A stretch of 64,000 nt of DNA from a virus (taxonomy: Duplodnaviria > Heunggongvirae > Uroviricota > Caudoviricetes), in IMG/VR virus record IMGVR_UViG_3300017613_001587; one strand, 5' to 3'. Position 1 is the first letter of the stretch, and every line of letters starts with the position of its first letter. Below, piece by piece: positions 5,546-58,290 of the stretch. A program made the translations under genes and the position numbers. The notes beneath the pieces are model-generated. The model searched no databases, had not been told where the DNA came from, and was given only the letters and a program-made list of their open reading frames with translations.

Positions 5546-5662
5546 CTGGTTTTCTGGGCGGGTTGCTGGGGATGTCCCGGCTGCCCGTCTATACCCTAAG
5601 GTGTGCCCGTCGCACCAACAAACGGCCGCATGTGGCCACAACTACCTTATAAGGAGGTCCCT

Positions 5663-6442
5663 ATGAGTGGATCAGCAAGAAGTCTGCAGATGAGTTTTTT
5701 CAGTGGCATGAGAGTTGCGAGCACCAGCTATACGCCCGCACACAGCAAGAATGGCAAAAACATCAGCGCCAAACTGGTCGTGAACGCCTTCATGAACATC
5801 GCGTCCCGCGCCAATGCCGGTGAAGGCCGCAACGAAGCCGTCCCGTTCACCATCTGGGGGAAACTGGCGGATATCTGCGCCAAGAGCATGTCGCCGGGCA
5901 AAGAGTTCAATTGCTTCGCCCAACTGCATGTGTACAACGGCCGTGTGTTCATGCCGTCCGGTGTCGCAGGCCAGCCCGGCCAGCAGATCAACGATTCCAC
6001 CGGTCAGCCCGTCCTTACCAAGAAGTTCAGCTATACCATCACCATGCTGACCTTCGGTGAGGAGTCCAACAAGCACATCCTGAATGAGATCCAGGCAGGT
6101 GTGCGTCCGGCCGACTGGAACGTGGCGGGTAGCCAGGGTTCGCTGGTGTGGAAAGAGACCCTGAAAGCGCGTCAGGCCATTCAGTATGATCCGGCCCACC
6201 TGACCTTCGGGTATGCCCGTGTGTATCAGCCGCAAGGCGCCGGTATCGGTGCGTATATCCAAGGCACCGCTCCGGGCGTAGCCCCGACGACCATGGGCCC
6301 GGCTGTTGACACGACCGCTGCCGTAGCCGCGACGTTCGCAGGTGTTCAGCCTGCCCCGACCGTTGCCGCTCCTGTAGCCCCTGTAGCGACCCCTGCCCCG
6401 GCAATTCAGCCCGGTGGGTTTGTCGTTCCGTCCGGCGTGTAG
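5663..6442 (+). CDS. divergent SSB-like OB-fold paralog
   Basis: AAGGAGG 6 nt before the ATG. An SSB-like core (VPFTIWGKLAD..GKEF..LHVYNGRVF..) is followed by an Ala/Pro/Val-rich tail ending QPGGFVVPSGV, the same tail motif as ssb at 189-791. Confidence 0.45.
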   Translation: MSGSARSLQMSFFSGMRVASTSYTPAHSKNGKNISAKLVVNAFMNIASRANAGEGRNEAVPFTIWGKLADICAKSMSPGKEFNCFAQLHVYNGRVFMPSGVAGQPGQQINDSTGQPVLTKKFSYTITMLTFGEESNKHILNEIQAGVRPADWNVAGSQGSLVWKETLKARQAIQYDPAHLTFGYARVYQPQGAGIGAYIQGTAPGVAPTTMGPAVDTTAAVAATFAGVQPAPTVAAPVAPVATPAPAIQPGGFVVPSGV

Positions 6443-6473
6443 TCTAGCGCCATAACCTAGCCTCGGTAGGGTG

Positions 6474-6505
6474 CCCCAAGTGGGTGTCCCACCGGGGTTT
6501 TTTTG
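6474..6505 (+). terminator. rho-independent terminator
   Basis: GC hairpin (CCCC..GTGGG-TGT-CCCAC..GGGG) followed by TTTTTTT. Confidence 0.55.
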
Positions 6506-6664
6506 TATTTGTAGGAGAAATACCGTGTTTATTTTGATGTTCGGGCGGGGTAAACCGGTGTCGTTTGCTATTGTGTACTCTGGGACTTGCTGTGCTCTCT
6601 TTTGTCTGCGCCATGGTCTGCTCTATGACCGCGTTGTTTTGTACACTAGTAGAGTAGTATTATA

Positions 6665-6856
6665 CTATTGTAGATCTTCCTTTAGCTTAGCTAGCATTAG
6701 CTCATGTCTGTTCATCAGCTTGACTAACGCTGGATATATGCTAATTGTGAGTTCTATTGTACTGGCACGCGACAATCCCATCTCATTGGATAGAGTGTCT
6801 AAGTCATCAAGGAACTCCTGGGTACATCTCATTTGGAACTTCTTATCTTTTGTCAT
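6665..6856 (-). CDS. ribbon-helix-helix (CopG/Arc/MetJ-like) transcriptional regulator
   Basis: The only convincing minus-strand gene. KKFQMRCTQEFLDDLDTLSNEMGLSRASTIELTI fits the RHH strand-helix-helix consensus. Its start codon lies inside a TGTCATGACA palindrome. An alternative upstream start would be at 6892. Confidence 0.55.
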   Translation of the reverse strand: MTKDKKFQMRCTQEFLDDLDTLSNEMGLSRASTIELTISIYPALVKLMNRHELMLAKLKEDLQ

Positions 6857-6966
6857 GACATATTTCCTTATTTGTATGGACATATTTGTCATGACAAATG
6901 TATTGTCATTACATTTAGTTTGTCATGACATTTTTGTACTGACAGGTTCTTTTTTCTGTCATGACA
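6851..6966. promoter_or_regulatory. four copies of the 10-bp palindrome TGTCATGACA (6851, 6887, 6921, 6957) in an AT-rich divergent control region
   Basis: Exact repeats are seen in the sequence. Further copies occur at 7559 and 8432. They sit upstream of the minus-strand RHH gene and within a TATAAT-rich region. Confidence 0.5.
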
Positions 6967-7086
6967 CTAATATAAGCACTATTTGGGGTTTGTCAAGCCC
7001 TAGACCGTATTTATTTGCTAATAACCACTATGCTATGCTATAATAGTATAGTATATATACTACTATTCTAATAGGTTAGGAACGAA

Positions 7087-7425
7087 ATGGCTAAATTCTT
7101 TAGTAATGACTCGACAACTGAAGCGAAAAGTCGTAAATGGGCTCAATATAACGATTTTTCGAGCGAAATCGATCATTTAGTGGCTCAATGGAAGGATAAA
7201 TCAACAAAAAAGCCTAAAAACGCCCAAAGTACCGTAAAAACAGCTAAAAACCCTTGTGGAGAGGTAGTTTTGGACAGTTTTTCTTATTTGAGAGCCTCTG
7301 GAGAGCCTATGAAAGCACCTGACTCAACACCTAATCCTAACGAGGCATTTAGGCGACTAAAGTATGGAAAGACGAGTGTTACCGAGTTCTTACGGCTGGC
7401 TAAGGAGACAGGAGATAAACTATAA
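7087..7425 (+). CDS. hypothetical protein with a PNPNEAFRRLK motif
   Basis: ATG after TAGGAACGAA, preceded by TATAAT-containing TAGTATAG repeats. Confidence 0.45.
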   Translation: MAKFFSNDSTTEAKSRKWAQYNDFSSEIDHLVAQWKDKSTKKPKNAQSTVKTAKNPCGEVVLDSFSYLRASGEPMKAPDSTPNPNEAFRRLKYGKTSVTEFLRLAKETGDKL

Positions 7426-7432
7426 TACTATT

Positions 7433-7446
7433 CTATCGATCGATAG
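7433..7446. repeat. 14-bp perfect palindrome CTATCGATCGATAG
   Basis: Seen directly, just after the 7087-7425 stop; related TCGATCGA half-sites follow. Confidence 0.3.
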
Positions 7447-7619
7447 GCAAATCGATGCGTCGAATGTGTGTTCGATCGAGTCCCTGGAATATGTCATTAC
7501 AATAGTATAATAGTATAGTAGTATAGAAATAGTAGTGTAGTATGTATCATGGTCAATTTGTCATGACATTATGCATAGTACAGTATTATTTTGTACATAC
7601 AAATAGAGGAGGATAGACT

Positions 7620-8404: not shown

Positions 8405-8435
8405 TATTATATTACAGTAGTATAGGAGGTATGTC

Positions 8436-8600
8436 ATGACAAAGACTCAGTATAGTATGTATAAAGCTATGTTATCATTGGATAGTGATATGCCTAAAAG
8501 TGTTAGGTTAGCTGGTGAGGTGTCCAGTAGGTTTATCATAGGTGTGGCTGCTATTCTGATTGCTGAGAAGTTGTTATATGTTATAATAGATCTACTGTAG
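8436..8600 (+). CDS. small membrane protein (54 aa)
   Basis: The same CAGTAGTATAGGAGGTAT box lies upstream; the start overlaps a TGTCATGACA palindrome. Confidence 0.35.
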   Translation: MTKTQYSMYKAMLSLDSDMPKSVRLAGEVSSRFIIGVAAILIAEKLLYVIIDLL

Positions 8601-34698: not shown

Positions 34699-34879
34699 TG
34701 GAACATGGACAACCGTGCTTTGTGGTAAGTGCGACCTAGCACACAAGGTGTTATCAAAACATATCAAACCCCAGTCAAACTGTCCCTACTGCGACGAGTT
34801 TATTCATCTTACCAAATTGGAGGATGACCACGCCGCGGAGAAGAAAGAAGGCTGGAAAGACTGCGCGGAGGTGTCATAA
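34655..34879 (+). CDS. zinc-ribbon protein
   Basis: CGKC..CPYC. Confidence 0.4.
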   Translation: MSPKGDSMSRIVMNDGTWTTVLCGKCDLAHKVLSKHIKPQSNCPYCDEFIHLTKLEDDHAAEKKEGWKDCAEVS

Positions 34880-36216
34880 TGATCGGAACTTACCCACGCA
34901 AAGCCAAGTACACCAAGAAGACTAAGGACTTGCTGAAACTGGACAGCGAGTATATCTCTCCTTCATACACCCGTGACTATCCGTTTATTGTTGCCCATGC
35001 TCGTGATAGAGAGGTAAGAGATATAGATTATAATTTATATCTTGATTTCGGTGCTGGTATCGCTGTTACCTCTACCGGCCACTGTCACCCTGATGTCGTG
35101 CATGCTGTCAAAGAGCAAGCTAATAACTTTCTTCATATGTCTGGCACCGATTTCTTTTACGAGAATCAGATCAAACTGGCCGAGAAGCTCCAAAAGTATT
35201 GTTCTCAAAAGATGCCGGTATTCTATGGCAACTCTGGAGCTGAGGCAGTGGAAGCTGCCATGAAGATAGCCAGATTTCATACCCAGAAGCCTGGGTTTAT
35301 TGCTTTCACCGGCGCCTTCCATGGCCGCACCATGGGCGCCCTCTCCCTGACTGCCAGCAAGGCAGTACAGAGATCACGTTATCTGCCCTTACAGCCGGTA
35401 GCACATGTCCCTTACCCTAATTGTTATGACTGCCCCCTCGGTACCAACTCCCAACGCTGCGATAGTCATGGCAGCGTATGTGTAGACTACATCGACAGTG
35501 AAGTCCTCGGCAGAGGAGCCATGCCTGCATCTGATTGTGCAGCCCTGGTTATGGAACCTATACAGGGAGAGGGCGGTTATATCGTACCGCCACCTTTTTG
35601 GTTCAATGATATCCAAGCGCTTGCTGACTCACATGACCTACTAATTATCTGTGATGAGGTACAGGCAGGTGTTGGTCGTACTGGTGAGTTTTGGGCCCAT
35701 CAGAATTTCACTGGAACTGATGGCGACATCTTCATCCCTGACATTATCTGCTCGGCTAAGGGTATAGCCTCAGGCATGCCTCTTGGCGTCATGATGGCCA
35801 GGGTAGACTTGATGTATGGCTGGAAGCCTGGCTCACATGCCTCAACGTTCGGCGGCAATCCTGTATCCTGTGCAGCTGCCCTTGCTACTATCGATGTAAT
35901 CGAGAAAGAGGGATTGATGGACAATGCTGCTGTCATGGGCGCACACCTGGGTACAATGTTAGACTTAATGTATAAGGCCTGCGGCGTAACAGATAACCCC
36001 CGAGGTATGGGGCTTATGCGTGCTATTGACGTTCTGGGAGAGAACAAAAAGGGTACTTACAGAGACCAGGTTCTGATGAGATGTTTCGAAAAAGGGCTGA
36101 TCCTGCTTGGTTGTGGTAAAAGCGGTATCAGATTTTGCCCTGCACTTAATGTCACCACGGAGGAGGTGGACACCTGTGTACGCATACTCGAGGATACAAT
36201 TAACGAGATCATTTGA
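34879..36216 (+). CDS. class-III PLP-dependent aminotransferase (ArgD/GabT family)
   Basis: GSGAEAVE..LICDEVQAGVGRTG..SAKGIASGMPLG are the class-III aminotransferase motifs. Confidence 0.8.
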   Translation: MIGTYPRKAKYTKKTKDLLKLDSEYISPSYTRDYPFIVAHARDREVRDIDYNLYLDFGAGIAVTSTGHCHPDVVHAVKEQANNFLHMSGTDFFYENQIKLAEKLQKYCSQKMPVFYGNSGAEAVEAAMKIARFHTQKPGFIAFTGAFHGRTMGALSLTASKAVQRSRYLPLQPVAHVPYPNCYDCPLGTNSQRCDSHGSVCVDYIDSEVLGRGAMPASDCAALVMEPIQGEGGYIVPPPFWFNDIQALADSHDLLIICDEVQAGVGRTGEFWAHQNFTGTDGDIFIPDIICSAKGIASGMPLGVMMARVDLMYGWKPGSHASTFGGNPVSCAAALATIDVIEKEGLMDNAAVMGAHLGTMLDLMYKACGVTDNPRGMGLMRAIDVLGENKKGTYRDQVLMRCFEKGLILLGCGKSGIRFCPALNVTTEEVDTCVRILEDTINEII

Positions 36217-40445: not shown

Positions 40446-41210
40446 ATGCTTTCATTTCAATTTGCAAACTATGGATGGGGTACGTCAGCCAGTAAAGAGT
40501 TCAAATGGGTTTATACCCATCCAGATCCCAAAAATCCTGGTAAACTCGTAAACAGCAGTAAGAGTAACACCTGCCGGGAATATTTCGTCAAGAATCTCCG
40601 TTATCATATCAACCAGGGCGATGGCTTCATTCCTGAAGGCCGCCGTGCATATGCACTGGTCTCTTTTGGTATGCCGCGGAATGCATTATTCGAAGCCTGG
40701 CAAGATGCATTGAATAAAGCCGCAGAGAAGAGTATTTACATCATAAACTCTTACGAGAAGCATCATAAATGGCAGCGTACCCGGCTTTACCCGGTTAAAA
40801 CCGCTGGCGCTCCCATGGTGTTCTTTAATGGCCCAAAACGATGGACTATGTCCCCTTACCTGATGTCTATGTGGACACTTATGATTCGTATGGGGCGTAA
40901 TTCATGGTTGCCTAAGAAGCTCCTGAAAATGGGCCACGAGGAGATGGTGAAGTATATCACGAAAGCAGCTGACAATAGGGGCGGCGATGGGTATCAAGTT
41001 GCAAGATCTATACACGAATGGGACAACTTCATGGCTCTGTACAAAAAGTTGTTCGGTAACAATAATCGCAAATATCACTGGCAAGTAAGTCATCTCAATG
41101 GAAGGTCCGATAGACCTGAGGGCATCCAGAAACTCATGGATGGCACCACTGGCTACACATCACTACACAATAAGTACTATAAACTGAAAAAGGAGGCTGG
41201 TTTTAAATGA
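40446..41210 (+). CDS. hypothetical protein (254 aa)
   Basis: ORF track. Confidence 0.45.
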   Translation: MLSFQFANYGWGTSASKEFKWVYTHPDPKNPGKLVNSSKSNTCREYFVKNLRYHINQGDGFIPEGRRAYALVSFGMPRNALFEAWQDALNKAAEKSIYIINSYEKHHKWQRTRLYPVKTAGAPMVFFNGPKRWTMSPYLMSMWTLMIRMGRNSWLPKKLLKMGHEEMVKYITKAADNRGGDGYQVARSIHEWDNFMALYKKLFGNNNRKYHWQVSHLNGRSDRPEGIQKLMDGTTGYTSLHNKYYKLKKEAGFK

Positions 41211-45305: not shown

Positions 45306-45393
45306 GCCCCCGTAGCTCAGTGGAAGGCTAACGCCGCAGAGCATAGGACTTCTAATCCTTGTGCCGCAGGTTCGAATCCTGCCGGGGGTACCA
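45306..45393 (+). tRNA. tRNA-Arg(TCT)-like with a 10-nt insertion (mini-hairpin GGCTAACGCC) in the D-loop; CCA is encoded
   Basis: The cloverleaf was built by hand. The acceptor GCCCCCG/CGGGGGT and T-arm GCAGG-TTCGAAT-CCTGC are identical to the next tRNA. The anticodon loop is CTTCTAA. The D-loop is 20 nt. Confidence 0.55.
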
Positions 45394-45406: not shown

Positions 45407-45484
45407 GCCCCCGTAGCTCAGTGGATACAGAGCGCTCGGCTACGAACCGAGAGGTCGCAGGTTCGAATCCTGCCGGGGGTACCA
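45407..45484 (+). tRNA. tRNA-Arg(ACG)
   Basis: Canonical 78-nt cloverleaf with D-stem GCTC/GAGC, anticodon loop CTACGAA and T-loop TTCGAAT; ACCA at the 3' end. Confidence 0.8.
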
Positions 45485-46301: not shown

Positions 46302-46387
46302 GGAGAGGCTGGGTAAGAGTGAACCCAAGGGACTGTAAATCCCCCGTCTAGCGGCTGTGGAGGTGCAAATTCCTCCCTTCTCCACCA
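46302..46387 (+). tRNA. tRNA-Tyr(GTA)-like element with a long variable arm but an atypical 8-nt T-loop (TGCAAATT)
   Basis: Folded by hand: acceptor GGAGAGG/CTTCTCC (one G-U pair), D-stem GGGT/ACCC, anticodon loop CTGTAAA as in bacterial tRNA-Tyr, a 14-nt variable arm starting CGTC, then ACCA at the 3' end. Confidence 0.4.
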
Positions 46388-48387: not shown

Positions 48388-48570
48388 ATGTCGAAAGGAA
48401 TTCAAGCAAAAACTAAACTTCTTAGACAAGTAGAGGAAAGCATTGAAATATGCGAGAACTACCGTGGTACAAAGCCGGACTACTACATAGACCATTGGCA
48501 AGACAAACATATTCTACTACTTGCTCTAAAGAAGACACTAACAGGAGGTAAACCACCATGCAATACCTGA
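48388..48570 (+). CDS. hypothetical protein
   Basis: TAAGGAGGTAAACCACT-ATG. Confidence 0.4.
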   Translation: MSKGIQAKTKLLRQVEESIEICENYRGTKPDYYIDHWQDKHILLLALKKTLTGGKPPCNT

Positions 48571-49322
48571 AAGACTATTTTAAAGACTGGAACTTGTGGG
48601 ATTGGAGCTGGGTTGTCATAGCTTCATTTGTTGGAACCTGGTTAGGACTCAAGTGGGGTGATCCCACTAACCCATGGTACACAGCACTCAGCATTGGTAC
48701 TATGCTGACCGGCCTCTGGTGTGTCATTCTCGTGGCCAAAGGACGTATCTTCAACTATTACCTGGGTGTACTCAACGTGCTTGGATACGCCTACATCGCC
48801 TATGGATATCAGCTCTACGGCGAAGTGCAGCTTAACCTACTGTACTATCTCCCGATGCAGTTCGTAGGGCTATATATCTGGATGAAGAACAAAGACGTTA
48901 GCATACCTGATAAGATCAGAGTAAAGTTCTTGAATAATGGCAACCGATTCTTCGTGGCAGTTGCTTCTGCAACAGCTGTTGTAGGCTACGGTAACTGGTT
49001 GGGGTATCTAGGTGATCCTTTACCTTTTCTGGATGCTACCTCTACTATGCTCTCCATCATCGCCATGATCCTGATGGCCTGGAGATACATGGAGCAGTGG
49101 ATACTGTGGATAGTAGTAGATATAGTATCAGTATGGATGTGGTGGCTTACCATAGATGCTCATGGTAATAGAGATATTACTATGTTAGTCATGTGGATCG
49201 CTTTCCTCATCAATGCTGTCTACGGTTTCATCATGTGGGTCAAGATGTATCAAGAGCAGTGTGCTTTGGATGCTCTGGATGGTGCTCTACAACCTGATTG
49301 GACAAACCGCCATGGCAACTAA
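48558..49322 (+). CDS. pnuC: PnuC-family nicotinamide riboside transporter
   Basis: A 7-8 transmembrane-helix protein with Trp/Tyr-rich motifs (W..W..NPW...; WILWIVVDIVSVWMWW) characteristic of PnuC. Confidence 0.65.
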   Translation: MQYLKDYFKDWNLWDWSWVVIASFVGTWLGLKWGDPTNPWYTALSIGTMLTGLWCVILVAKGRIFNYYLGVLNVLGYAYIAYGYQLYGEVQLNLLYYLPMQFVGLYIWMKNKDVSIPDKIRVKFLNNGNRFFVAVASATAVVGYGNWLGYLGDPLPFLDATSTMLSIIAMILMAWRYMEQWILWIVVDIVSVWMWWLTIDAHGNRDITMLVMWIAFLINAVYGFIMWVKMYQEQCALDALDGALQPDWTNRHGN

Positions 49323-49470
49323 GGATACATTAAAACTAATGGTGCTCCCCAAGGCGGGAGTACCATTTGGTGAGTGGGAGTTCGTCTGGGTCACTAAGGA
49401 CGAGCTCAAAACCTATCAACAACGTGGATACAAACGCGCCAGAAAGGTGAAAGAGAGAGATTATGCTTAA
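49312..49470 (+). CDS. small hypothetical protein
   Basis: Internal ATG overlapping the end of pnuC; weak ribosome-binding site. Confidence 0.25.
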   Translation: MATKDTLKLMVLPKAGVPFGEWEFVWVTKDELKTYQQRGYKRARKVKERDYA

Positions 49471-49843
49471 CTTAGGGCAGGTAGTCTACGATCTAACCAA
49501 TAAAAGGGTTCTGATCTTTGGTGGCATATCAATGCTCCAGAATCAAGAATCAGGTAAATGTCATACCGAAATCAACTTCTTGACGGAAGATCTTGAGCAG
49601 TTGAACTACGGTAAAGACAACCCGACTCCTTTTAAGTATAGGAACTTCGCTGTCGTCGACGGTAAGATCCCATGTGGTGATTTTATGACGGCAGCCGAAC
49701 TCACAGGGCATTTCTTTGGTAATGTAAACTTTGATCTGGCCCTTCAGATAACCGAGAACGTCGAGGCCGTCAAGAGGACCTTCGAGATGGCCAAAGCATT
49801 AACCCCGCCAGAACCGATAGAGGAGGTAGATAGTAATGGCTGA
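49463..49843 (+). CDS. hypothetical protein
   Basis: ORF track. Confidence 0.45.
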   Translation: MLNLGQVVYDLTNKRVLIFGGISMLQNQESGKCHTEINFLTEDLEQLNYGKDNPTPFKYRNFAVVDGKIPCGDFMTAAELTGHFFGNVNFDLALQITENVEAVKRTFEMAKALTPPEPIEEVDSNG

Positions 49844-50018
49844 AAGAGCATGTGGTACATGTAAGGCTGATGAAACATGGTGCTGGATGTTTGTATATAA
49901 CGAGGATGAAAAGAAGTGTCCGTGTGCACATTGTGATAAGAACGACGACTGTGAAGACGTCTTTGGCGACGACGATGCTGAAGGGTGTGCGAAATTCGCA
50001 GCCGCATGGGAGGATTAA
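49836..50018 (+). CDS. small Cys-rich acidic protein
   Basis: ATGG overlap with the upstream stop. Confidence 0.4.
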   Translation: MAERACGTCKADETWCWMFVYNEDEKKCPCAHCDKNDDCEDVFGDDDAEGCAKFAAAWED

Positions 50019-50019
50019 T

Positions 50020-50328
50020 ATGCACCCAGGACTGATAAGGTTAATAGCCTTAGGGACAGTATTCGGCGGTTGGGCAGCCACTGTTGTAGGTGGTTATCTG
50101 CGCGGCCTCAAGCAAACAGAGGGAGGATCTAAAGTGATCACAAGAACGATGTATCATGAGACTAAGGAAGGGGTACATGTACTTGAGTTCCCCGAACTTG
50201 AAACCATTAACCTGGCCGATCCTGAAATTCAAGCACACGCTATCAAGTGGGGGCTGGCTGTTGGTATACCCGGCGGTGAGATTCTCTTCAAAAAGGATGC
50301 TCGCTTCGTCGCAACGGGAGGTAAGTGA
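50020..50328 (+). CDS. membrane-anchored hypothetical protein
   Basis: GGGAGGATTAAT-ATG. Confidence 0.4.
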   Translation: MHPGLIRLIALGTVFGGWAATVVGGYLRGLKQTEGGSKVITRTMYHETKEGVHVLEFPELETINLADPEIQAHAIKWGLAVGIPGGEILFKKDARFVATGGK

Positions 50329-50567
50329 TGAACAAACTGATATCTGGAAAGCTTTTAGTCATCGCCTTAGCAGGCGTCCGGCGCATCGCTGAGAAAGAAG
50401 GCCATGATTTCATGGAACTGGTCGCTAGATCCACCAATAACAAGATGACCCTCGAGGCTATCGAGGAGGCCATCGATGCCTTTGAGGAAACCGGCGGCGA
50501 GGACAACCCCGAAAAGTTCCTTGAATACTTGGAGAAAAACTCCAGTAAGGGAGGAGGATTATCATGA
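50325..50567 (+). CDS. hypothetical protein
   Basis: ATGA overlap with the upstream stop. Confidence 0.4.
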   Translation: MMNKLISGKLLVIALAGVRRIAEKEGHDFMELVARSTNNKMTLEAIEEAIDAFEETGGEDNPEKFLEYLEKNSSKGGGLS

Positions 50568-50755
50568 CGCTCGTTATTATCGCTCTTATGTGTGTTAGTG
50601 TTTTCTGTTTTTACGCAGGCCGTAAATCCGGCGAAACCTCGGGATATTGGAAAGGCCGCGGTACAGGCTGGAAAGACTGTGAGGACATGGTCATTAAACG
50701 CATGGTCGAACACGGCTATGACAAAGAGAAGGTCTGGGAGGATTTAATTCAATGA
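50564..50755 (+). CDS. small membrane protein
   Basis: ATGA overlap with the upstream stop. Confidence 0.4.
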   Translation: MTLVIIALMCVSVFCFYAGRKSGETSGYWKGRGTGWKDCEDMVIKRMVEHGYDKEKVWEDLIQ

Positions 50756-50973
50756 AGAAGACCGGATTCAACGATTATGATAAACAGCGGGAGATCCTCA
50801 AGCGAGTTGAGCTGGAAGAGTATAGATTACGCTGCATTGCAGTTAACATCTGCCCCTGGTGTGGTGAGGATCTTAAGGATATAGAGGCTCTCAGTTCACA
50901 TTTTTGTACGCTGTCCTGCCCCACCAAAAACTGCGAAGGTGCTGAGAGGATAAGAAAGTCTAACCGAGGTTAG
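50752..50973 (+). CDS. zinc-ribbon protein
   Basis: CPWCG..C..C. Confidence 0.4.
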   Translation: MKKTGFNDYDKQREILKRVELEEYRLRCIAVNICPWCGEDLKDIEALSSHFCTLSCPTKNCEGAERIRKSNRG

Positions 50974-50983
50974 GAGGTAAACC

Positions 50984-52060
50984 ATGTACAATATTGGAGT
51001 TGTACCCGGCAAGTTTTTTCCACCACATAGAGGACACCTCAATCAGATCATTCGTGCGGCCACACAATGTAAAAAAGTATATGTAGTGGTATCTGATAAT
51101 GAGGACTTGGCATTGGACAAGTGCCGTAAGGACAACCTACCATTCATTCCTATCAAAACCCGAGCACTCTGGCTATCACTGGAGCTTCAGGGCATAGACC
51201 ACATCGAAGTATTGATGCTGGACGAGACCGGTATTCCTGCCTATCCTGATGGTAGTGTACAATGGTGTCAGATGCTCAGAACACTAATCGCCAACACAAT
51301 ACCTGGCGCCAGTAAGATAGATGTCATATTTGGCGGAGAAACTGAATACCAGGATACATATATGAAGCATATGCCTGGTACCGAGTATGATGTTTATGAC
51401 TACAAGCGTAGCCGTTATCCTGTCAGTGGTACTGAAGTACGTCTGGACTATCTTAAACACTGGGACTATATTCTTGGATCTGCCAGGGGATTCTTTGCCC
51501 GGCGGATACTCGTCACTGGTACTGAAAGCTGTGCCAAAAGCACGCTGGTTAAGTATTTAGCCAAGATCTTCCATACGTCCTGGTCAGAAGAGTACGGTAG
51601 GTACTATTCAGCAGATTATCTGGGAGGAAACGAGGATCTGTTTCAATTAGATGATTTCACACGTGTTGCCCGCATACAAGAGGCTCAGGATGAAGAGGCT
51701 CTGAAGAGTGCTAACCGGATCTGTTTCTTTGATTCCGATGCGGTGGTCACTCAATACTACTGCCATCTCTATACTGGCAGCCAGAACCCTCTGATTGAGA
51801 CGCACGTCAATCCTCAGAAGTACGATCTGGTCCTTATGATGGGCCCAACAGTTGGCTGGGTAGCGGATGGACTTCGCTTCAAGGGTGAGCAGGCGGATAG
51901 GGAGAGGCTGCATAAGAAACTGTTGTATATGTATCTTGACCGCGGCTTCAAGGATAAAATCATCGAGATCAACGATGACAACTATTCTGCTCGTTTAGCC
52001 AGAGCTACTGATTATGCTGATAAACTGGTGGCTGATCGTAAGTACATGAGCCGCTACTGA
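50984..52060 (+). CDS. nadR: NadR-like bifunctional NMN adenylyltransferase / ribosylnicotinamide kinase (no HTH domain)
   Basis: N-terminal GKFFPPHRGH (the nucleotidyltransferase HxGH motif) and C-terminal VTGTESCAKSTL P-loop, as in NadR. Confidence 0.7.
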   Translation: MYNIGVVPGKFFPPHRGHLNQIIRAATQCKKVYVVVSDNEDLALDKCRKDNLPFIPIKTRALWLSLELQGIDHIEVLMLDETGIPAYPDGSVQWCQMLRTLIANTIPGASKIDVIFGGETEYQDTYMKHMPGTEYDVYDYKRSRYPVSGTEVRLDYLKHWDYILGSARGFFARRILVTGTESCAKSTLVKYLAKIFHTSWSEEYGRYYSADYLGGNEDLFQLDDFTRVARIQEAQDEEALKSANRICFFDSDAVVTQYYCHLYTGSQNPLIETHVNPQKYDLVLMMGPTVGWVADGLRFKGEQADRERLHKKLLYMYLDRGFKDKIIEINDDNYSARLARATDYADKLVADRKYMSRY

Positions 52061-52069
52061 GGAGGAACA

Positions 52070-52273
52070 ATGGCAAATAATGAACCGCTATTAGAATCCA
52101 TAACGCACGGTCTTATGAACAATAAGGCCCCATTCGTATACACTGAGGCTGCTGCTCAACCAACTGATCCGCAGAGAAAGAAGATCGGTGTGGCGGCCTT
52201 TCAACTGACTGGTATATGTGTCTATCTGTATGAAGACGGTACCTGGGAGTGGCAAGACACAACTGGAGGATAG
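52070..52273 (+). CDS. hypothetical protein
   Basis: TGAGGAGGAACA-ATG. Confidence 0.4.
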   Translation: MANNEPLLESITHGLMNNKAPFVYTEAAAQPTDPQRKKIGVAAFQLTGICVYLYEDGTWEWQDTTGG

Positions 52274-52274
52274 T

Positions 52275-52535
52275 ATGAAGAAGTTAATTGCTGTATTGTT
52301 AATCCTATTGGTGCTGGCTGCAACACCAGCAGCTGCAAAAGTCTATCTTGTGGTAGCAACACTGGCTAACACCGGTGTCTCATCGTTTACCTTTGATTAT
52401 CATGAGGTAGAGGATATGGATCAGTGCCTGCGTATAGTAGATCGTGCTAAGATCAGTGTAGCGCAGGGCGGAGATGCCGAAGCGTCCATTGCAATTTACT
52501 GTGCGCCGGATAAAAGGGAGAAAGATCTTGACTGA
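52275..52535 (+). CDS. secreted protein with a signal peptide
   Basis: MKKLIAVLLILLVLAATPAAA. Confidence 0.4.
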   Translation: MKKLIAVLLILLVLAATPAAAKVYLVVATLANTGVSSFTFDYHEVEDMDQCLRIVDRAKISVAQGGDAEASIAIYCAPDKREKDLD

Positions 52536-52962
52536 ATATAAACTTGATGAGACGCCGTACCTGACGATAGATGCCATCATTGAGTACAATCGCAAGCTCA
52601 TCATTATCGAGCGTATGCATGACCCTCTGGGCTTAGCCTGGGTAGGTGGCTTCGTCGACCCAGGTGAAACCTGCAAACAGGCAGTGATCAGAGAGTGCGG
52701 TGAGGAAGTCAACCTTAAGGTAGATGTGATTGACCTTATAGGTATCTATGATGATCCTGAACGTGACCCACGAGGTCACCTGGTATCTATTGCTTATCTG
52801 TGCAAGGCTGTGGCGGGCACTCCGCGGCCTCAGGATGCAGAGGTTAAGAAGATTCATCAGGTCTCATTGGATGAAGCCTTGAAACTACATATGATAGCTG
52901 ACCATAGCCAGATGTTACTGGATGCTCTGGAACTGGCCGTGTTCGACAGGAGGCGGATATGA
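52528..52962 (+). CDS. Nudix hydrolase (ADP-ribose pyrophosphatase-like)
   Basis: Nudix box GGFVDPGETCKQAVIRECGEEVNL (GX5EX7REUXEEXGU). The start is uncertain: TTG at 52528 after AAGGGAG, or ATG at 52474. Confidence 0.7.
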   Translation: MTEYKLDETPYLTIDAIIEYNRKLIIIERMHDPLGLAWVGGFVDPGETCKQAVIRECGEEVNLKVDVIDLIGIYDDPERDPRGHLVSIAYLCKAVAGTPRPQDAEVKKIHQVSLDEALKLHMIADHSQMLLDALELAVFDRRRI

Positions 52963-53303
52963 CGGACGAAGAGAAAGAACTGGTTATTGAGAAGCTGCTG
53001 GAGTCCACTGAGATCAGAAAGATCTACGATACTTACATCATCAAAAGTATCCCGTTTGAGACCTGGGTCCGCGACACAACTGATCGTCTCTTAGCCCCAG
53101 CGCCAAACGTCGTGATAGATGCGGATGAAGTATTAGCCAAGGTAATGGGGGATAATAATGATGAAGGTTTTGCTATGATATACGGCACTTGTAAATACTG
53201 TGGTGAAACCGTAGACGACGATAACCTGGCCGAATTGGCCACCGAAGACATGGGTTTGATGTGCGAGCCCTGTTTCAATGAGAAGGAGGTGGGATCATCG
53301 TGA
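52959..53303 (+). CDS. hypothetical acidic protein
   Basis: ATGA overlap with the upstream stop. Confidence 0.45.
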   Translation: MTDEEKELVIEKLLESTEIRKIYDTYIIKSIPFETWVRDTTDRLLAPAPNVVIDADEVLAKVMGDNNDEGFAMIYGTCKYCGETVDDDNLAELATEDMGLMCEPCFNEKEVGSS

Positions 53304-53554
53304 GAGCACCAAACGCTAAACCAGAGCGGAATCGTATGATGCTCAGGCTGGCCATGAGAGGTTACAACTGTAAACAAATATCAAGTGTTTATGGATGTTC
53401 CAGTGGTAATGTGTTTGTTATAGTACGCCGTGAAGGAAATAAAATACTCCAGCCGCTTCGAGATGCCGAGATGAGTGGTATCAAACACAATCTAACTGTA
53501 AGTGAGCTTCGTAAGTTCAGAAACTATATCTTAGGGGAGTTACTCGATGATTAA
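53300..53554 (+). CDS. HTH DNA-binding protein (LuxR / sigma-region-4-like)
   Basis: ERNRMMLRLAMRGYNCKQISSVYGCSSGNVFVIVRR. Confidence 0.4.
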   Translation: MRAPNAKPERNRMMLRLAMRGYNCKQISSVYGCSSGNVFVIVRREGNKILQPLRDAEMSGIKHNLTVSELRKFRNYILGELLDD

Positions 53555-53987
53555 ACTTGGACTCGACCTACACGGCGTGATTGATGCTGCACCTAAGTTC
53601 TTTTCCACTATGGCAGGTCAGATGATAGACCGGGGACATGAGATCTATATTATTACTGGCCGTGAGGACTGTGAGGAGCTGAGGAGAGAGCTTAACGCAT
53701 GCAACATGGACTATAATGGTATACTATCTATTACTACCTATCAAAAGGGTCAGGGCGTTCCTATATCGTACCTTGATGGGCGGCTATCTCAGCCGATGAT
53801 GGACCCACAAATATGGAACCCGACAAAGGCTATGCTGTGCGCCACGGCGGGTATCGACATTATGATCGATGATTCCTCATTATATGAACCCTTCTTCAGG
53901 GACATTAAGACACAGTACATCGTTTATTCCGCTACCGTTATGGAGTGGCTAAACTTTATGTTTTATTGTGGAGGAACACAATTATGA
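53547..53987 (+). CDS. HAD-like hydrolase with an atypical motif I (DLHGV in place of DxDGx)
   Basis: LGLDLHGVID..IITG..MIDDS. Confidence 0.35.
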   Translation: MIKLGLDLHGVIDAAPKFFSTMAGQMIDRGHEIYIITGREDCEELRRELNACNMDYNGILSITTYQKGQGVPISYLDGRLSQPMMDPQIWNPTKAMLCATAGIDIMIDDSSLYEPFFRDIKTQYIVYSATVMEWLNFMFYCGGTQL

Positions 53988-54532
53988 AAAAGGTACTGAT
54001 TGTTGTTGACATGTTAAACGACTTCTGTCATCCGAATGGCGTTCTTGCCAAGTCCATCATAACCGATGAGCTCTATGCCCAGCCTATCCTGAAAAACGTG
54101 GTAGGGCTAGTGGAGATGTTCAGAGGCCAAGGCCTGCCCATCATATGGCTGGCTGATGCTCATGCCGAGGATGACAAAGAATTCGATCGTTTCCCAAAAC
54201 ATGCTGTTAAAGGCACCTGGGGAGCTGAAATCATCGGCGAACTCGGCCCTAAATACGTTGAGAGATCTTCGTCCGAGCTTGTCATCCCTAAAACACGCTA
54301 CAGCGGCTTCTTTGGCACCGACTTGGAATACCAACTGAGTCGACTTGCTCCAGCTGCCGTGGAAGTATGTGGTGTGTGTACCAGCATCTGCGTGATGGAC
54401 ACCGTAGGTGGGCTGGCCAACCGGGATTATGACATTCACGTTGATAAGTCCTGTGTTGCGGATTTTGACCCCGCAGGACATGAGGCTGCTCTGGCACGTA
54501 TGACCAATTTATACGGCGCTACGGTCGTCTAA
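53984..54532 (+). CDS. pncA: isochorismatase-family hydrolase, probably nicotinamidase PncA
   Basis: VLIVVDMLNDF..K.RYSGF..T.L...L..VEVCGVCTSICV is the cysteine-hydrolase fold. It sits immediately upstream of pncB. Confidence 0.6.
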   Translation: MKKVLIVVDMLNDFCHPNGVLAKSIITDELYAQPILKNVVGLVEMFRGQGLPIIWLADAHAEDDKEFDRFPKHAVKGTWGAEIIGELGPKYVERSSSELVIPKTRYSGFFGTDLEYQLSRLAPAAVEVCGVCTSICVMDTVGGLANRDYDIHVDKSCVADFDPAGHEAALARMTNLYGATVV

Positions 54533-54546
54533 GGAGGCTACAGACC

Positions 54547-55749
54547 ATGATTAAGAGTCTACTTGATACCGACTTTTATATCCTAACCATGATGCAGGCG
54601 ATATTCCATCGCTACACGAACGTCGACACCAAGTTCGAGTTTAAATGGCGGAACTGGGATGATATGCATTTCAATATCAAACTGGATGATTTTATCGGCC
54701 GCCTGAAGAAACGCCTGGATGCTCTATGTGAGCTCAGGATCACCAAGAATGAGATAGAGTTCCTGAAGACAGTTCCATTCTTTAAGGATGACTTTATCGA
54801 ATACCTGCGGCTGTTTCAACTTAACCGCGGGTACATTCATCCCTATAACCGGGACGGGCAGCTGGCCATTGATATTCACGGCCCGCTGTTGAATGTCATT
54901 CCGTTTGAGGTGCCGGTACTTGCCACTGTCAGTCAGTTATATACCAGCAGCAACGGCGAGATCGGTTTTAACTGGCAGAAGATGGGGCGAACTCTGCTCC
55001 GTGAGAAGCTTGACTACTTGGATTCCAATTTACATCGTGATATGAACTTCGGATTCGCGGACTTTGGTACTCGTAGGCGTGCCCACTACGATTGGCACAA
55101 AGAGCTTCTCGAAACTATCCTTAGCCATGAGCCTTGCCGTATGGTTGGTACCAGTAATGTGCATTTTGCCATGAAGTATGGTATCAAATATATCGGTACC
55201 ATGGCGCATCTTTGGTTCCAGATCCACCAGCAGTTGGGGCCCCGCCTCATAGACAGCCAACAAGCTGCTCTCCAGGCCTGGGCTAATGAGTATCGCGGTG
55301 AGCTGGGAATAGCTCTGTCAGACACACTCGGCTTTCGTACATTCCTGTGTGATTTTGACAGGTATTTTGCTTTATTATTCGATGGTTGTCGCCACGACTC
55401 TGGTGATCCGATCCGTTGGTGTGAGGCCCTCATCGATCATTACAAGAAGATGAGAATCGATCCCAAAACCAAGACGGCTGTCTTTAGCGATGGGTTGACA
55501 TTTCAGGTTGCTGTTGATTTATTCCTGAGATTTCAGAATCATATCAACACATCGTATGGTATTGGCACGTACTTGACCAATGATTGTGGCTTCAAGCCTC
55601 CACAGATTGTTATCAAGAATACGGAAACAAACGGTAAACCAACGGCCAAGATCTCTGATTCCCAGGGCAAAGGTATGTGTATGGATGATGATTTCGAGGC
55701 CTATCTCATGAAAGTCGTGGAGGAAAAGATCAATGGGTGTTATTCTTAG
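54547..55749 (+). CDS. pncB: nicotinate phosphoribosyltransferase
   Basis: Near-continuous agreement with E. coli PncB: LLDTDFY.LTMMQA, FGTRRR, VGTSN, MAH.WFQ.HQQ, QAAL.AW..EY...LGIALSD, RHDSGDP, VFSD.L, FGIGT.LT.D, KP.AKISDS.GK. Confidence 0.9.
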   Translation: MIKSLLDTDFYILTMMQAIFHRYTNVDTKFEFKWRNWDDMHFNIKLDDFIGRLKKRLDALCELRITKNEIEFLKTVPFFKDDFIEYLRLFQLNRGYIHPYNRDGQLAIDIHGPLLNVIPFEVPVLATVSQLYTSSNGEIGFNWQKMGRTLLREKLDYLDSNLHRDMNFGFADFGTRRRAHYDWHKELLETILSHEPCRMVGTSNVHFAMKYGIKYIGTMAHLWFQIHQQLGPRLIDSQQAALQAWANEYRGELGIALSDTLGFRTFLCDFDRYFALLFDGCRHDSGDPIRWCEALIDHYKKMRIDPKTKTAVFSDGLTFQVAVDLFLRFQNHINTSYGIGTYLTNDCGFKPPQIVIKNTETNGKPTAKISDSQGKGMCMDDDFEAYLMKVVEEKINGCYS

Positions 55750-56653
55750 CGAGATAGTTTCACATGATGTTGATCTCAGAGAGATTTACAATAACGCTAT
55801 AGTCGGGGGTTGTGCTTATCTCAAGGCCAACCCCCTTGTCAGGACACTGATCCTGGGATTCTCTGGTGGTATAGACAGCCTCGTGACCGGCATACTGGCC
55901 CGAGCCGTGGTCGATAAGATGAATAAGAGGGAAGATCACCCTCATGATTACCGCCTTATTGGCTACAGTCTACCCATCATTACCAATGAACAGGACGAGA
56001 TCTATCGAGCCAAGGCTGCCGGTGAAGTTCTTTGTGATCACTTCAGCGAAGTCGATTTATCCAAAGCTTTTATGTCTATATTACCTATCGTGGACAATTC
56101 ATTGTTCTACGAACTTTATGGCCATGAAGCTCCACGTCCCTTAAGCGCACGAATCCGTGGCGGTAATATCAAAGCCAGGCTTCGGATGATGCACCTATAC
56201 GATAAGGCCAGTAAGTATAATGGTATGGTCTTGTCAACAGACAACTACACCGAGTATCTTTTGGGCTTCTGGACACTGCACGGTGATGTGGGTGACTTCG
56301 GCTTCATTCAGGAACTGTGGAAGACCGAGGTCTATGCTCTAGCTGAGTGGATAGGTTGGTCAGAGATGAATCTCCCTGTAATTGAGGAAACACTCGAGGC
56401 CAACGCTACTGACGGTTTAGGTGTATCCAGCGGTGATTTGGCTCAGATATTGCCAGACTGGGAAGGCTCAAGCCGGGATGGGTATGCAGAGGTTGATAGA
56501 CTACTACGTATCTGGGTTAATGGTGAGCTGGATGATGAATGGTTCGATGAGATTCATGAGAGTCCGGTCATCAAACGTCATCGGGCTTCTGCATTTAAAC
56601 GCAATAATCCAGCAAACTTGGACAAACTTCAGCTTATAGGACTCCTTGGTTAA
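55733..56653 (+). CDS. nadE: NH3-dependent NAD+ synthetase
   Basis: PP-loop SGGIDS, the GGN.KAR.RM..LY block and TDN..E...GF.T..GD, as in NadE. Confidence 0.85.
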   Translation: MGVILSEIVSHDVDLREIYNNAIVGGCAYLKANPLVRTLILGFSGGIDSLVTGILARAVVDKMNKREDHPHDYRLIGYSLPIITNEQDEIYRAKAAGEVLCDHFSEVDLSKAFMSILPIVDNSLFYELYGHEAPRPLSARIRGGNIKARLRMMHLYDKASKYNGMVLSTDNYTEYLLGFWTLHGDVGDFGFIQELWKTEVYALAEWIGWSEMNLPVIEETLEANATDGLGVSSGDLAQILPDWEGSSRDGYAEVDRLLRIWVNGELDDEWFDEIHESPVIKRHRASAFKRNNPANLDKLQLIGLLG

Positions 56654-56972
56654 TGTTATGAGAACGACGGTTCACGGTAAAAAGAGAATAAGAAAGCGAA
56701 TCGGGATCAAAAAGAAAGCCGTGGATAGGATGCGAGACGCTGCTTTTAGTAAGGGTGTGACTCACGCCCAGGCCAAAGGCCGTCTTTCCAGGTACTTTGA
56801 TAAACTATTCTTAGAACACGAAACTTGTAATAATATCCGAATGTATGCCAACTATGTTTGGATTTTTGCCGGTGAGACGCTCATTACAGTTTATCCAATA
56901 CCAACCAACCTGAAGAACAGCGCCATAGGTGCCCAAAGAAGGGAGAAAAATCGTGATATCGATAAAAGGTAA
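56646..56972 (+). CDS. hypothetical basic protein
   Basis: ORF track; overlaps the rtcB start. Confidence 0.4.
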   Translation: MVNVMRTTVHGKKRIRKRIGIKKKAVDRMRDAAFSKGVTHAQAKGRLSRYFDKLFLEHETCNNIRMYANYVWIFAGETLITVYPIPTNLKNSAIGAQRREKNRDIDKR

Positions 56973-57186
56973 GTATTCAACAGCGCATATCATGGTGGAT
57001 GATCCTAACCATGTTGTAGATCAAGACGAATATAAACAGATCCTTGAATTTGTCAACTGCCATGTTTTTGTCAATGATTCTCGAATCATGCCTGATTATC
57101 ATTATGGTAAAGGATGTGTTATTGGGTTCACCATGCCCATGACACCTCAGGTTATACCTAATATAGTCGGCGTCGATATTGGCTGA
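56929..57186 (+). CDS. rtcB: RtcB RNA ligase, N-terminal segment, ending at an in-frame TGA
   Basis: MPDYHYGKGCVIG..IVGVDIG-TGA aligns with E. coli RtcB MPDVHLGKGSTIG..AVGVDIG-C78-GM. Confidence 0.75.
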   Translation: MPKEGRKIVISIKGKYSTAHIMVDDPNHVVDQDEYKQILEFVNCHVFVNDSRIMPDYHYGKGCVIGFTMPMTPQVIPNIVGVDIG

Positions 57187-57189
57187 ACT

Positions 57190-58290
57190 ATGCTCTATGT
57201 GAGCTTCCAGAAGTTTCTGGATTTCGATAAAGCACAATGGCTGGTGATAGATCGACAAATTCGTAAACGCATCCCTATGGCACAAAAACATCGAGCCAAT
57301 CCGGCGTACAATAATTTCCATTCTGATTTTCCATGGGGCATAGCAACACTTCAACAGCAGGTTTTTACGTCCAAACTTAACAAGATGTTTGGTACAGATT
57401 ATAAAGGGGTAGATTACAACCCCAAATGGTTCTTTGACCTGTGTGAACGCGTAAACTGTAATCCCACAACAGCCGTTAATTCAATAGGTTCTCTGGGTGG
57501 GGGTAATCATTTCATTGAGTTCAGCAATTCAGAACAGACGGGCAACACTGGCGTAACTATCCATTCTGGTTCAAGAAATCTGGGTCTGAAGATTGCCAAC
57601 TACTGGCAGAGAAAAGCAGTAGCCAACCTGAAGCATCGATACCAGGTTGATTTCCAGAACACTATCAAGGAGATCAAAGCTACTCAGCCCCAGGAGAAGT
57701 GGGATAAACTCATCAAAGCTGCTAAACTGCCGCCTACTAAGACTGGCCTGGAGTATCTCGAAGGTGAGGACTGGTACGGTTACCTTCATGAGATGAATTT
57801 TGCCCAGATCTATGCCCAGGAAAACGTCGCTACTATGGCGTCTGTCATCCTGACCACTCTGAATCTACCAGCGGCGTTGATGATGTCGCCGGACAACGTG
57901 CATACCACACATAATTATATCAGCTTTGAGGACTTTATTGTCCGTAAAGGAGCTGTTCGTTCTATAAAGGGTGAAAAAATGCTGATTCCCTTTAATATGG
58001 AAGATGGTATCTTGATATGCGAAGGTAAGAGCAACGAAGAGTGGTACCAGTCGGCTCCGCACGGTGCGGGGCGTCTATTCGGCCGTGGTGAGATGAAGCG
58101 AGACTCGTCGATCAGCACCAAGGCCATCAAGAAACGGATGCAAGATAAAGGCCTTATCACCAGCGTAGTTCCAAAAGATGAGGTTAAAGAAGCCTACAAA
58201 GACCCTGCATTCATTGAGGGGGCGATTGCTCCTACTGCGACTATCGTTGATCGGCTTAAACCTATCATAACATTGAAGGCTAAAGACTAA
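57190..58290 (+). CDS. rtcB: RtcB RNA ligase, C-terminal segment, in the same frame
   Basis: SLGGGNHFIE, IHSGSRNLG and APHGAGR are the RtcB active-site motifs. Confidence 0.8.
   Translation: MLYVSFQKFLDFDKAQWLVIDRQIRKRIPMAQKHRANPAYNNFHSDFPWGIATLQQQVFTSKLNKMFGTDYKGVDYNPKWFFDLCERVNCNPTTAVNSIGSLGGGNHFIEFSNSEQTGNTGVTIHSGSRNLGLKIANYWQRKAVANLKHRYQVDFQNTIKEIKATQPQEKWDKLIKAAKLPPTKTGLEYLEGEDWYGYLHEMNFAQIYAQENVATMASVILTTLNLPAALMMSPDNVHTTHNYISFEDFIVRKGAVRSIKGEKMLIPFNMEDGILICEGKSNEEWYQSAPHGAGRLFGRGEMKRDSSISTKAIKKRMQDKGLITSVVPKDEVKEAYKDPAFIEGAIAPTATIVDRLKPIITLKAKD

Follow-up and report, generated by a model that had tools for sequence, protein, structure and literature searches.

A conserved in-frame UGA at the metal-binding cysteine codon of a phage RtcB RNA ligase as a probable selenocysteine codon

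A virus assigned to the Caudoviricetes (IMG/VR record IMGVR_UViG_3300017613_001587) carries, in the stretch of 64,000 nucleotides analysed here (the window), an rtcB gene whose frame is broken by one UGA, located exactly at the codon of a metal-binding cysteine (Cys) of RtcB RNA ligases. It is considered probable (roughly 0.8) that SelB and tRNA-Sec of the host insert selenocysteine (Sec) at this codon, number 78, and that the gene in this way encodes a complete RtcB of 445 amino acids, a ligase of 3'-phosphate and 5'-OH RNA ends; the reading is built on comparison of sequences. Directly observed are the position of the UGA and its conservation, the hairpin downstream and its strict linkage to the UGA, selection on both halves of the gene and the use of TGA as an ordinary stop elsewhere in the window.

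On the plus strand, positions 56929-58290 form a single frame in which the TGA at 57184-57186 is the sole break, joining 56929-57186 and 57190-58290. That the two parts together make up a complete RtcB had been claimed in the original prediction, and the joined product indeed matches the Pfam profile PF01139 over practically its whole length (positions 1 to 425 of 426 in the profile, E 2e-49) and contains the motifs MPDYHYG, VGVDIG, GGGNHFIE, HSGSRNLG, HNY and PHGAGR. The active-site residues examined were Asp and Cys of GVDIGC, the His of GGGNHF, HSGSR and HNY, and the His of PHGAGR which accepts guanosine monophosphate; none is missing and all are invariant throughout the clade alignment (N185, H186, H204, H320, H370), the Cys position being the UGA. 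The product is 26% identical to E. coli RtcB across the whole length, and RtcB chains of the PDB were matched by the clade profile. The start formerly placed at 56929 had to be moved, as GTG 56953 with the ribosome-binding site AGGGAG at 56940-56945 is the likelier one and fits the 77-aa N-terminal product which JGI had called independently. Counted from this GTG, the TGA is codon 78.

The active-site Cys of RtcB is a ligand of Mn2+, and its substitution by Ala inactivates the enzyme. The TGA falls on Cys78 of E. coli K-12 RtcB, as had been proposed, in a BLASTP alignment which is free of gaps and runs over residues 22-81 in both proteins. When the clade profile was aligned, again with no gaps, with the RtcB sequences of the P. 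horikoshii and T. thermophilus crystal structures, the same column was occupied by the C of DINC, which we take to be C98 in the numbering of the P. horikoshii protein. Cys98 of P. horikoshii RtcB is described as both an active-site Cys and a former intein junction (PMC4150793). Comparison of the joined translation with RtcB homologues, a check suggested at the outset, gave Cys in the UGA column in 28 of 28 full-length relatives; an in-frame UGA aligned with a Cys of homologues, by which bacterial selenoproteins are recognised, is present.

Protein relatives were sought among 5.8 billion proteins and two groups were returned. The first consists of full-length proteins of about 440-450 aa, 56-79% identical. 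The second comprises fourteen clusters of 365-370 aa (67-76% identical), whose first residue is in every case the Met lying two codons past the Cys column, together with the C-terminal piece of the window gene itself (P0001, 100%). The sequence of P0001 occurs unchanged on 4 contigs, which come from at least 3 JGI samples and all show the gene split into 77-aa and 366-aa parts. DNA was fetched for several of these relatives, and metagenomes were scanned for VGVDIG-TGA-NNN-ATG. TGA at codon 78 was found in 10 distinct lineages from about 12 samples (the window, L039, L040/41, L042, L055/68, L058, L064/67, L065, L066 and L074), and close relatives of the Cys type, with TGT or TGC, are L069, L070, L071 and L072. 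Synonymous differences among the UGA-type lineages (the proportion pS) amount to 0.5-0.8 and are saturated, the mean ratio of nonsynonymous to synonymous proportions (pN/pS) amounts to 0.19 before the UGA and 0.25 after it, that is purifying selection acts on both sides, and no other stops or frameshifts occur in UGA-type genes. Saturated pS together with low pN/pS on both sides shows that both halves have long been kept as coding sequence with the TGA between them. In a neighbour-joining tree of the part of the gene that follows the UGA, a tree which is not robust, UGA-type genes take at least 3 positions among Cys-type genes and the Cys-type P0002 is the sister of the window gene; such intermingling is typical of Sec/Cys families. 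P0032, which had looked like a UGA-type member within a Cys clade, was set aside as uninformative, since its contig merely begins 2 nt before the ATG and the hairpin is absent, as it should be in a gene of the Cys type.

The palindrome TCCAGAA-GT-TTCTGGA lies at 57206-57221, its first base 19 nt past the UGA. The hairpin of the original prediction is thus present at its place, but a loop of 2 nt is impossible, so the stem has to be drawn with 6 bp closed by an AGUU loop. Folded as UCCAGA/AGUU/UCUGGA, it reaches -7.5 kcal/mol in every UGA-type gene against 0 to -0.4 in Cys-type genes. The 18-nt block C-TTC-CAG-AAG-TTT-CTG-GA is identical in all 10 UGA-type genes, and the codons just 5' of it vary freely (CTC TAT GTG AGC, CTT TAC GTA AAC, TTA TAT GCC AGC and others). 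Measured across UGA-type genes as synonymous codon identity in windows of 6 codons, conservation at the hairpin is 1.00 versus a gene mean of 0.49 (standard deviation 0.13), the highest value among 445 windows; those ranking just below it overlap the hairpin. Hairpin and UGA occur strictly together, with the hairpin in 10 of 10 UGA-type genes versus 0 of 4 of the Cys type. In the Cys-type L070 the amino acids FQKFLD are retained, yet TTA replaces CTG and the hairpin is gone; in L072, where QKFLD is retained, CTT replaces CTG with the same effect, and L069 and L071 have further differences in this region and no hairpin. UGA and hairpin are therefore conserved jointly in orthologues that are under purifying selection on both sides of the UGA. 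The hairpin has no further exact copy in the window, and its sole independent near match, with 3 mismatches, lies at 41125-41141 of the other strand. Of the remaining in-frame TGAs in the window that have long open stretches on both sides, none carries the hairpin.

The bacterial model of the selenocysteine insertion sequence (SECIS; bSECIS for the bacterial form) was taken from a 2026 review and compared with the hairpin property by property (PMC13188914). The model asks for a loop of 3-9 nt, a stem of 4-16 bp, 16-37 nt between UGA and loop, a minimum free energy of -7.5 kcal/mol or lower, and a G at loop position 1 or 2 with G or U after it (PMC13188914). The phage element has an apical loop of 4 nt lying 25 nt from the UGA, an upper stem of 6 bp and, early in its AGUU loop, the G followed by U; the hairpin taken by itself reaches -7.5 kcal/mol, so that every published property compared agrees with the model. 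E. coli fdhF was extracted for reference; there the UGA of Sec140 is followed 18 nt on by a GGUC tetraloop. Both genes have an in-frame UGA where homologues have Cys and a hairpin just downstream inside the open reading frame (ORF), both hairpins end in a tetraloop whose positions 2-3 are G-U (GGUC for fdhF, AGUU for the phage), at a UGA-loop distance within 16-37 nt, and the Sec of the fdhF product is a direct metal ligand, as is proposed for Sec78 of the phage RtcB. Unlike fdhF, the phage element has a plain 6-bp stem with no bulged U and lies 25 instead of 18 nt from the UGA, the carrier is a phage-like genome showing no Sec machinery in the part examined, and the product is an RNA ligase and not an oxidoreductase. 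The claim made at the beginning, namely that the break has the signature of a Sec codon, has been strengthened by the UGA/Cys column, the 10 lineages, the purifying selection and a SECIS-compliant hairpin carried by all 10 UGA-type genes and by none of the 4 of the Cys type; each prediction of the Sec reading that lent itself to a test on sequence was borne out.

According to the favoured reading, a ribosome arriving at UGA78 would find 19 nt downstream the hairpin UCCAGA-AGUU-UCUGGA, which would serve as a bacterial SECIS and recruit the SelB-GTP-Sec-tRNA(Sec) complex of the host, so that the UGA would be decoded as Sec and translation would go on to the 445-aa enzyme. When selenium or SelB is missing, synthesis would stop after 77 residues and no active ligase would be made. 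The phage would supply the mRNA signal only, with selA, selB, selC and selD coming from the host, and in the active site the selenium of Sec78 would bind the Mn2+ ions in place of the sulphur of Cys. In phages RtcB would serve to mend tRNAs after cleavage by anticodon nucleases of the host, enzymes that produce 2',3'-cyclic phosphate and 5'-OH ends. As for the benefit of the exchange, it is plausible by analogy that selenium at this position resists the oxidative inactivation known for the RtcB Cys. Metals readily cause oxidative inactivation of the active-site Cys of RTCB, which in metazoa requires protection by PYROXD1 (PMC12263435), and a Sec-for-Cys exchange confers oxygen tolerance in [NiFeSe] hydrogenases (PMC13582414).

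TGA ends 38 of the 117 ORFs in the window, ATGA overlaps included, which indicates the standard code and no reassignment of TGA as in codes 4 and 25. With ARAGORN and Rfam, no tRNA with a UCA anticodon and no tRNA-Sec was found in the window and the 10 kb downstream of it. SelA, SelB and SelD were absent among the larger ORFs of the window, the small ORFs of window 1-47 kb being left out of the scan, and no selA, selB, selC or selD occurs among the precomputed Pfam labels of the L001/L077 genes (about window 47-74 kb). A pyridoxal phosphate enzyme of 445 aa at 34879-36216 was considered as SelA and rejected, as it is a class-III aminotransferase. This aminotransferase (PF00202, E 1.9e-103, plus strand) is an unusual auxiliary metabolic gene.

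Concerning tRNA genes, ARAGORN reported one only. Rfam found two (45306-45390 and 45407-45481) and a weak tRNA-like match at 46303-46383, in agreement with the two tRNAs and a tRNA-like element previously noticed about 11 kb upstream of rtcB, and none of them has a UCA anticodon. The tRNA overlooked by ARAGORN (45306-45390, plus strand) was examined as a candidate tRNA-Sec, but it is a tRNA-Arg(UCU) with an insertion in the D-arm. This tRNA scores 60.9 bits in Rfam, its D-loop insertion of about 10-15 nt (10-12 by MAFFT, 15 by Rfam) can lengthen the D-arm (GUGG...CCGC), and in acceptor stem and T-arm it does not differ from the neighbouring tRNA-Arg(ACG) (45407-45481). A tRNA-Arg(UCU) of normal build, 76 nt long, is present in the relative L071. 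The weak element (46303-46386, plus strand; Rfam 20.4 bits, E 0.34) has the acceptor stem GGAGAGG/CCUUCUCC, an encoded CCA, a Tyr-like GUA in the anticodon loop, a long variable arm and an odd D-arm. In the related phage L039 an unusually long tRNA-His(GUG) of about 86-89 nt (8411-8499, plus strand, Rfam 47.7 bits) may be another phage tRNA carrying an insertion.

The same DNA pattern was sought in bacteria, in 185,579 genomes (one per species) and in a further scan of a metagenome collection. The genome scan gave nine matches, about the number expected by chance on a rough estimate, and three of the nine are bacterial rtcB genes with TGA at the Cys codon, in metagenome-assembled genomes (MAGs) of Chloracidobacterium, Polyangiaceae and Rubrivivax. 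In both scans such bacterial genes are sporadic. The Polyangiaceae MAG DATJXW010000168.1 (L049, identical to L063) has an otherwise intact full-length gene with no comparable hairpin, L043 is another bacterial rtcB with TGA at the same codon, and L051 (the Rubrivivax MAG) and L059 each have a second in-frame stop; around the TGA, L049/L063, L043 and L051 read AVGVDIG*GM. A phage-like hairpin downstream of the TGA was not seen in L049/L063, L043 or L051, and these genes could be sporadic Sec-RtcBs or damaged genes. In the metagenome contigs L052, L053 and L061 the bacterial rtcB frame is lost right after VGVDIG-TGA, where the same unrelated sequence follows in all three; this points to an insertion precisely into the Cys codon, where the inteins of archaeal RtcBs are located.

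Several other explanations of the interrupted frame have to be weighed. A sequencing or assembly error, or a gene recently inactivated, were alternatives named in the original prediction; the step from TGY to TGA is a one-base event and the sporadic bacterial genes look damaged (a second stop in L051 and L059). Both are nevertheless excluded, the error by the identical TGA in the 4 contigs of at least 3 samples and in 9 further diverged lineages, the inactivation by saturated pS, pN/pS of about 0.2 on both sides and the lack of other lesions; relaxed selection, extra lesions and loss of conservation across lineages, which mark a pseudogene, are not observed. Some phages are known to have reassigned stop codons, but use of TGA as a sense codon in this phage or its host (Trp in code 4, Gly in code 25) can likewise be discarded because TGA terminates the 38 ORFs mentioned above and neither Trp nor Gly can replace a metal ligand.

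It is unlikely, though less easily put aside, that UGA78 is recoded to Cys or another residue, by a UCA tRNA of the unseen phage part or of the host (possibly via SelB) or by near-cognate read-through stimulated by the hairpin. UGA and its linked hairpin show recoding but leave the amino acid unspecified, about 30 kb of the genome lies outside the examined part, these phages carry scattered tRNAs (Arg, Arg, Tyr-like, Pro, Gln, His), and some phage genomes are annotated with 'tRNA-SeC' genes (PMC8879037). However, no UCA tRNA was detected in the examined part, a general UGA suppressor would read through the TGA stops of the window and would make the hairpin needless, and Trp, the usual product of UGA read-through in bacteria, could not replace a Cys which is invariant in the full-length relatives; if Cys were the intended residue, TGY would suffice, as it does in relatives. 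Very unlikely is a truly split gene, in which a 77-aa peptide and a 366-aa protein re-initiated at ATG 57190 would assemble and the hairpin would act in termination-reinitiation or regulation. It is true that TGA-NNN-ATG is found in every UGA-type gene and that gene callers annotate two ORFs, but the ATG and the Asn/Thr codon before it are found equally in Cys-type relatives (C-N-M), so this ATG did not evolve for re-initiation, and no Shine-Dalgarno motif precedes it. A split would, moreover, break the protein at one codon of 445 and remove the invariant metal-binding residue, and it leaves unexplained why the break is always TGA and always accompanied by a SECIS-compliant hairpin.

Some observations weigh against selenocysteine at codon 78. 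The search for tRNAs and Sec machinery covered about 74 kb (the window and 10 kb downstream) of a genome of about 102-108 kb. There is no close cultured relative, and selA, selB, selC and selD of the host, and with them its competence, are inferred, as are SelB binding, selenium incorporation and the benefit. An Rfam scan of the hairpin region returned no SECIS or other family, and because the hairpin is invariant, compensatory covariation is absent as a proof of pairing. The hairpin is also short, has no bulged U of the kind present in the E. coli element, lies 7 nt farther from the UGA than in fdhF and may not function with SelB of the E. coli type. Finally, the engineered RtcB C98U of P. 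horikoshii cleaved itself, though this residue is an intein junction (PMC4150793).

Among known systems, the Cys-containing RtcBs of E. coli, P. horikoshii and human (RTCB) share fold and motifs with the phage RtcB along the full length, and the His, Asp and Asn residues are kept; the phage protein differs in that the metal-bridging Cys is encoded by UGA. P. horikoshii C98U carries Sec at the homologous residue, as is proposed for the phage RtcB, but it is artificial (UAG, delivery by EF-Tu) and cleaves itself at the former intein junction, whereas the phage case is natural, conserved and under selection (PMC4150793). Eukaryotic viruses offer a likeness in that a viral gene uses the Sec machinery of the host to decode UGA. 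Poxvirus glutathione peroxidases are examples of such selenoproteins. There the SECIS is in the 3'-UTR (untranslated region), SBP2 and eEFSec are involved and the peroxidase is host-derived, in contrast to the bacterial-type hairpin inside the ORF of a virus of prokaryotes. Redefinition of UGA as Sec by a few viruses has been reviewed (PMC8310308). That neither a Sec-RtcB nor phage selenoproteins are established, as stated in the original prediction, agrees with the literature searched: for RtcB with selenocysteine or as a selenoprotein only the engineered P. horikoshii C98U was found, and for phage selenoproteins nothing came up beyond reviews on viruses of eukaryotes and a phage with a 'tRNA-SeC' annotation. 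RtcB, RNA ligase and phage go unmentioned in the main texts of the selenoprotein catalogues and review of 2025-2026 (deep-Sep, BSepDB with 111 families, PMC13188914), the word virus is likewise not mentioned in the main texts of the last two, and NCBIfam has no selenoprotein model for RtcB. With good though lesser confidence than the decoding itself, the gene may be put forward as a natural selenoprotein of a prokaryotic virus and a natural Sec-RtcB, belonging to a phage clade which would use host SelB and tRNA-Sec through an 18-nt SECIS inside the ORF. It can be said that this would be a known mechanism, as Sec-UGA and in-ORF SECIS are familiar in bacteria, in a new protein family and in a new kind of carrier.

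The window is phage-like, with small genes packed densely on a single strand, with tRNAs and with matches to PHROG, and the contigs are of about 102-108 kb. Neither the gene nor 25 kb of the window had a megablast match among 50,697 phage records. A scan of IMG/VR with the single RtcB protein found no relatives, and with the clade alignment only distant Cys-type RtcBs of 26-47% identity; in the 27 of 35 other IMG/VR loci where the equivalent of codon 78 could be located it is always TGT or TGC. RtcB as such occurs in many phages (683 phage records with tblastn matches). By tblastn the NadR-like gene shares no more than 36-38% identity with T5-like phages of Aeromonas and Salmonella, a 416-aa protein downstream has no cultured relative, and a look-up with the window ORF 950-1621, meant to extend the genome, gave nothing. 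Immediately 5' of rtcB, at 48558-56653 on the plus strand, there is a block of NAD+ salvage and synthesis genes which is syntenic in related phages (Table 1). The metazoan protection of the RTCB Cys by PYROXD1 is NAD(P)H-dependent, and a link between the NAD+ block and RtcB is speculative. In the Cys-type relative L071 an RNA_ligase (PF09414) gene at 5651-6283 adjoins rtcB (6286-7608, both on the plus strand) on its 5' side, which makes a pair of RNA ligases of different chemistry; in UGA-type phages this place is taken by NAD synthase and a small ORF.

Table 1. Positions of the rtcB elements and of the genes upstream in the window
Feature	Position	Strand	Remark
PnuC-like nicotinamide mononucleotide (NMN) transporter	48558-49322	+	
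NadR-like NMN adenylyltransferase	50984-52060	+	
NUDIX	52474-52962	+	
Isochorismatase/nicotinamidase-like protein	53945-54532	+	
NAPRTase (nicotinate phosphoribosyltransferase)	54547-55749	+	
NAD synthase	55733-56653	+	
Shine-Dalgarno-like AGGGAG	56940-56945	+	7 nt before the GTG start of rtcB; read from sequence
rtcB coding sequence	56953-58290	+	445 codons and TAA stop, read through one internal UGA
In-frame UGA, proposed Sec codon 78	57184-57186	+	takes the place of the metal-binding Cys (E. coli C78, P. horikoshii C98)
Invariant 18-nt block C-TTCCAGAAGTTTCTGGA	57204-57221	+	SECIS-like hairpin
Hairpin, 5' arm	57206-57211	+	
Hairpin, loop AGUU	57212-57215	+	
Hairpin, 3' arm	57216-57221	+	

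If Sec is indeed inserted at codon 78, the RNA repair of these phages would hinge on the selenium status of the host, and a prokaryotic virus with no visible Sec machinery of its own would exploit SelB and tRNA-Sec of the cell it infects. Sec in RtcB would then be a ligand of Mn2+ and not a redox nucleophile, and an RtcB ligated through selenium might withstand oxidative inactivation; as the Cys of RTCB is prone to such inactivation (PMC12263435), a protective role of Sec is directly testable. Because gene callers split rtcB into ORFs of 77 and 366 aa, cases of this kind would be systematically mis-annotated in viromes. Closely related phages with either Cys or Sec at one and the same metal ligand would form a clean system in which the value of Sec to a non-redox metalloenzyme can be studied.

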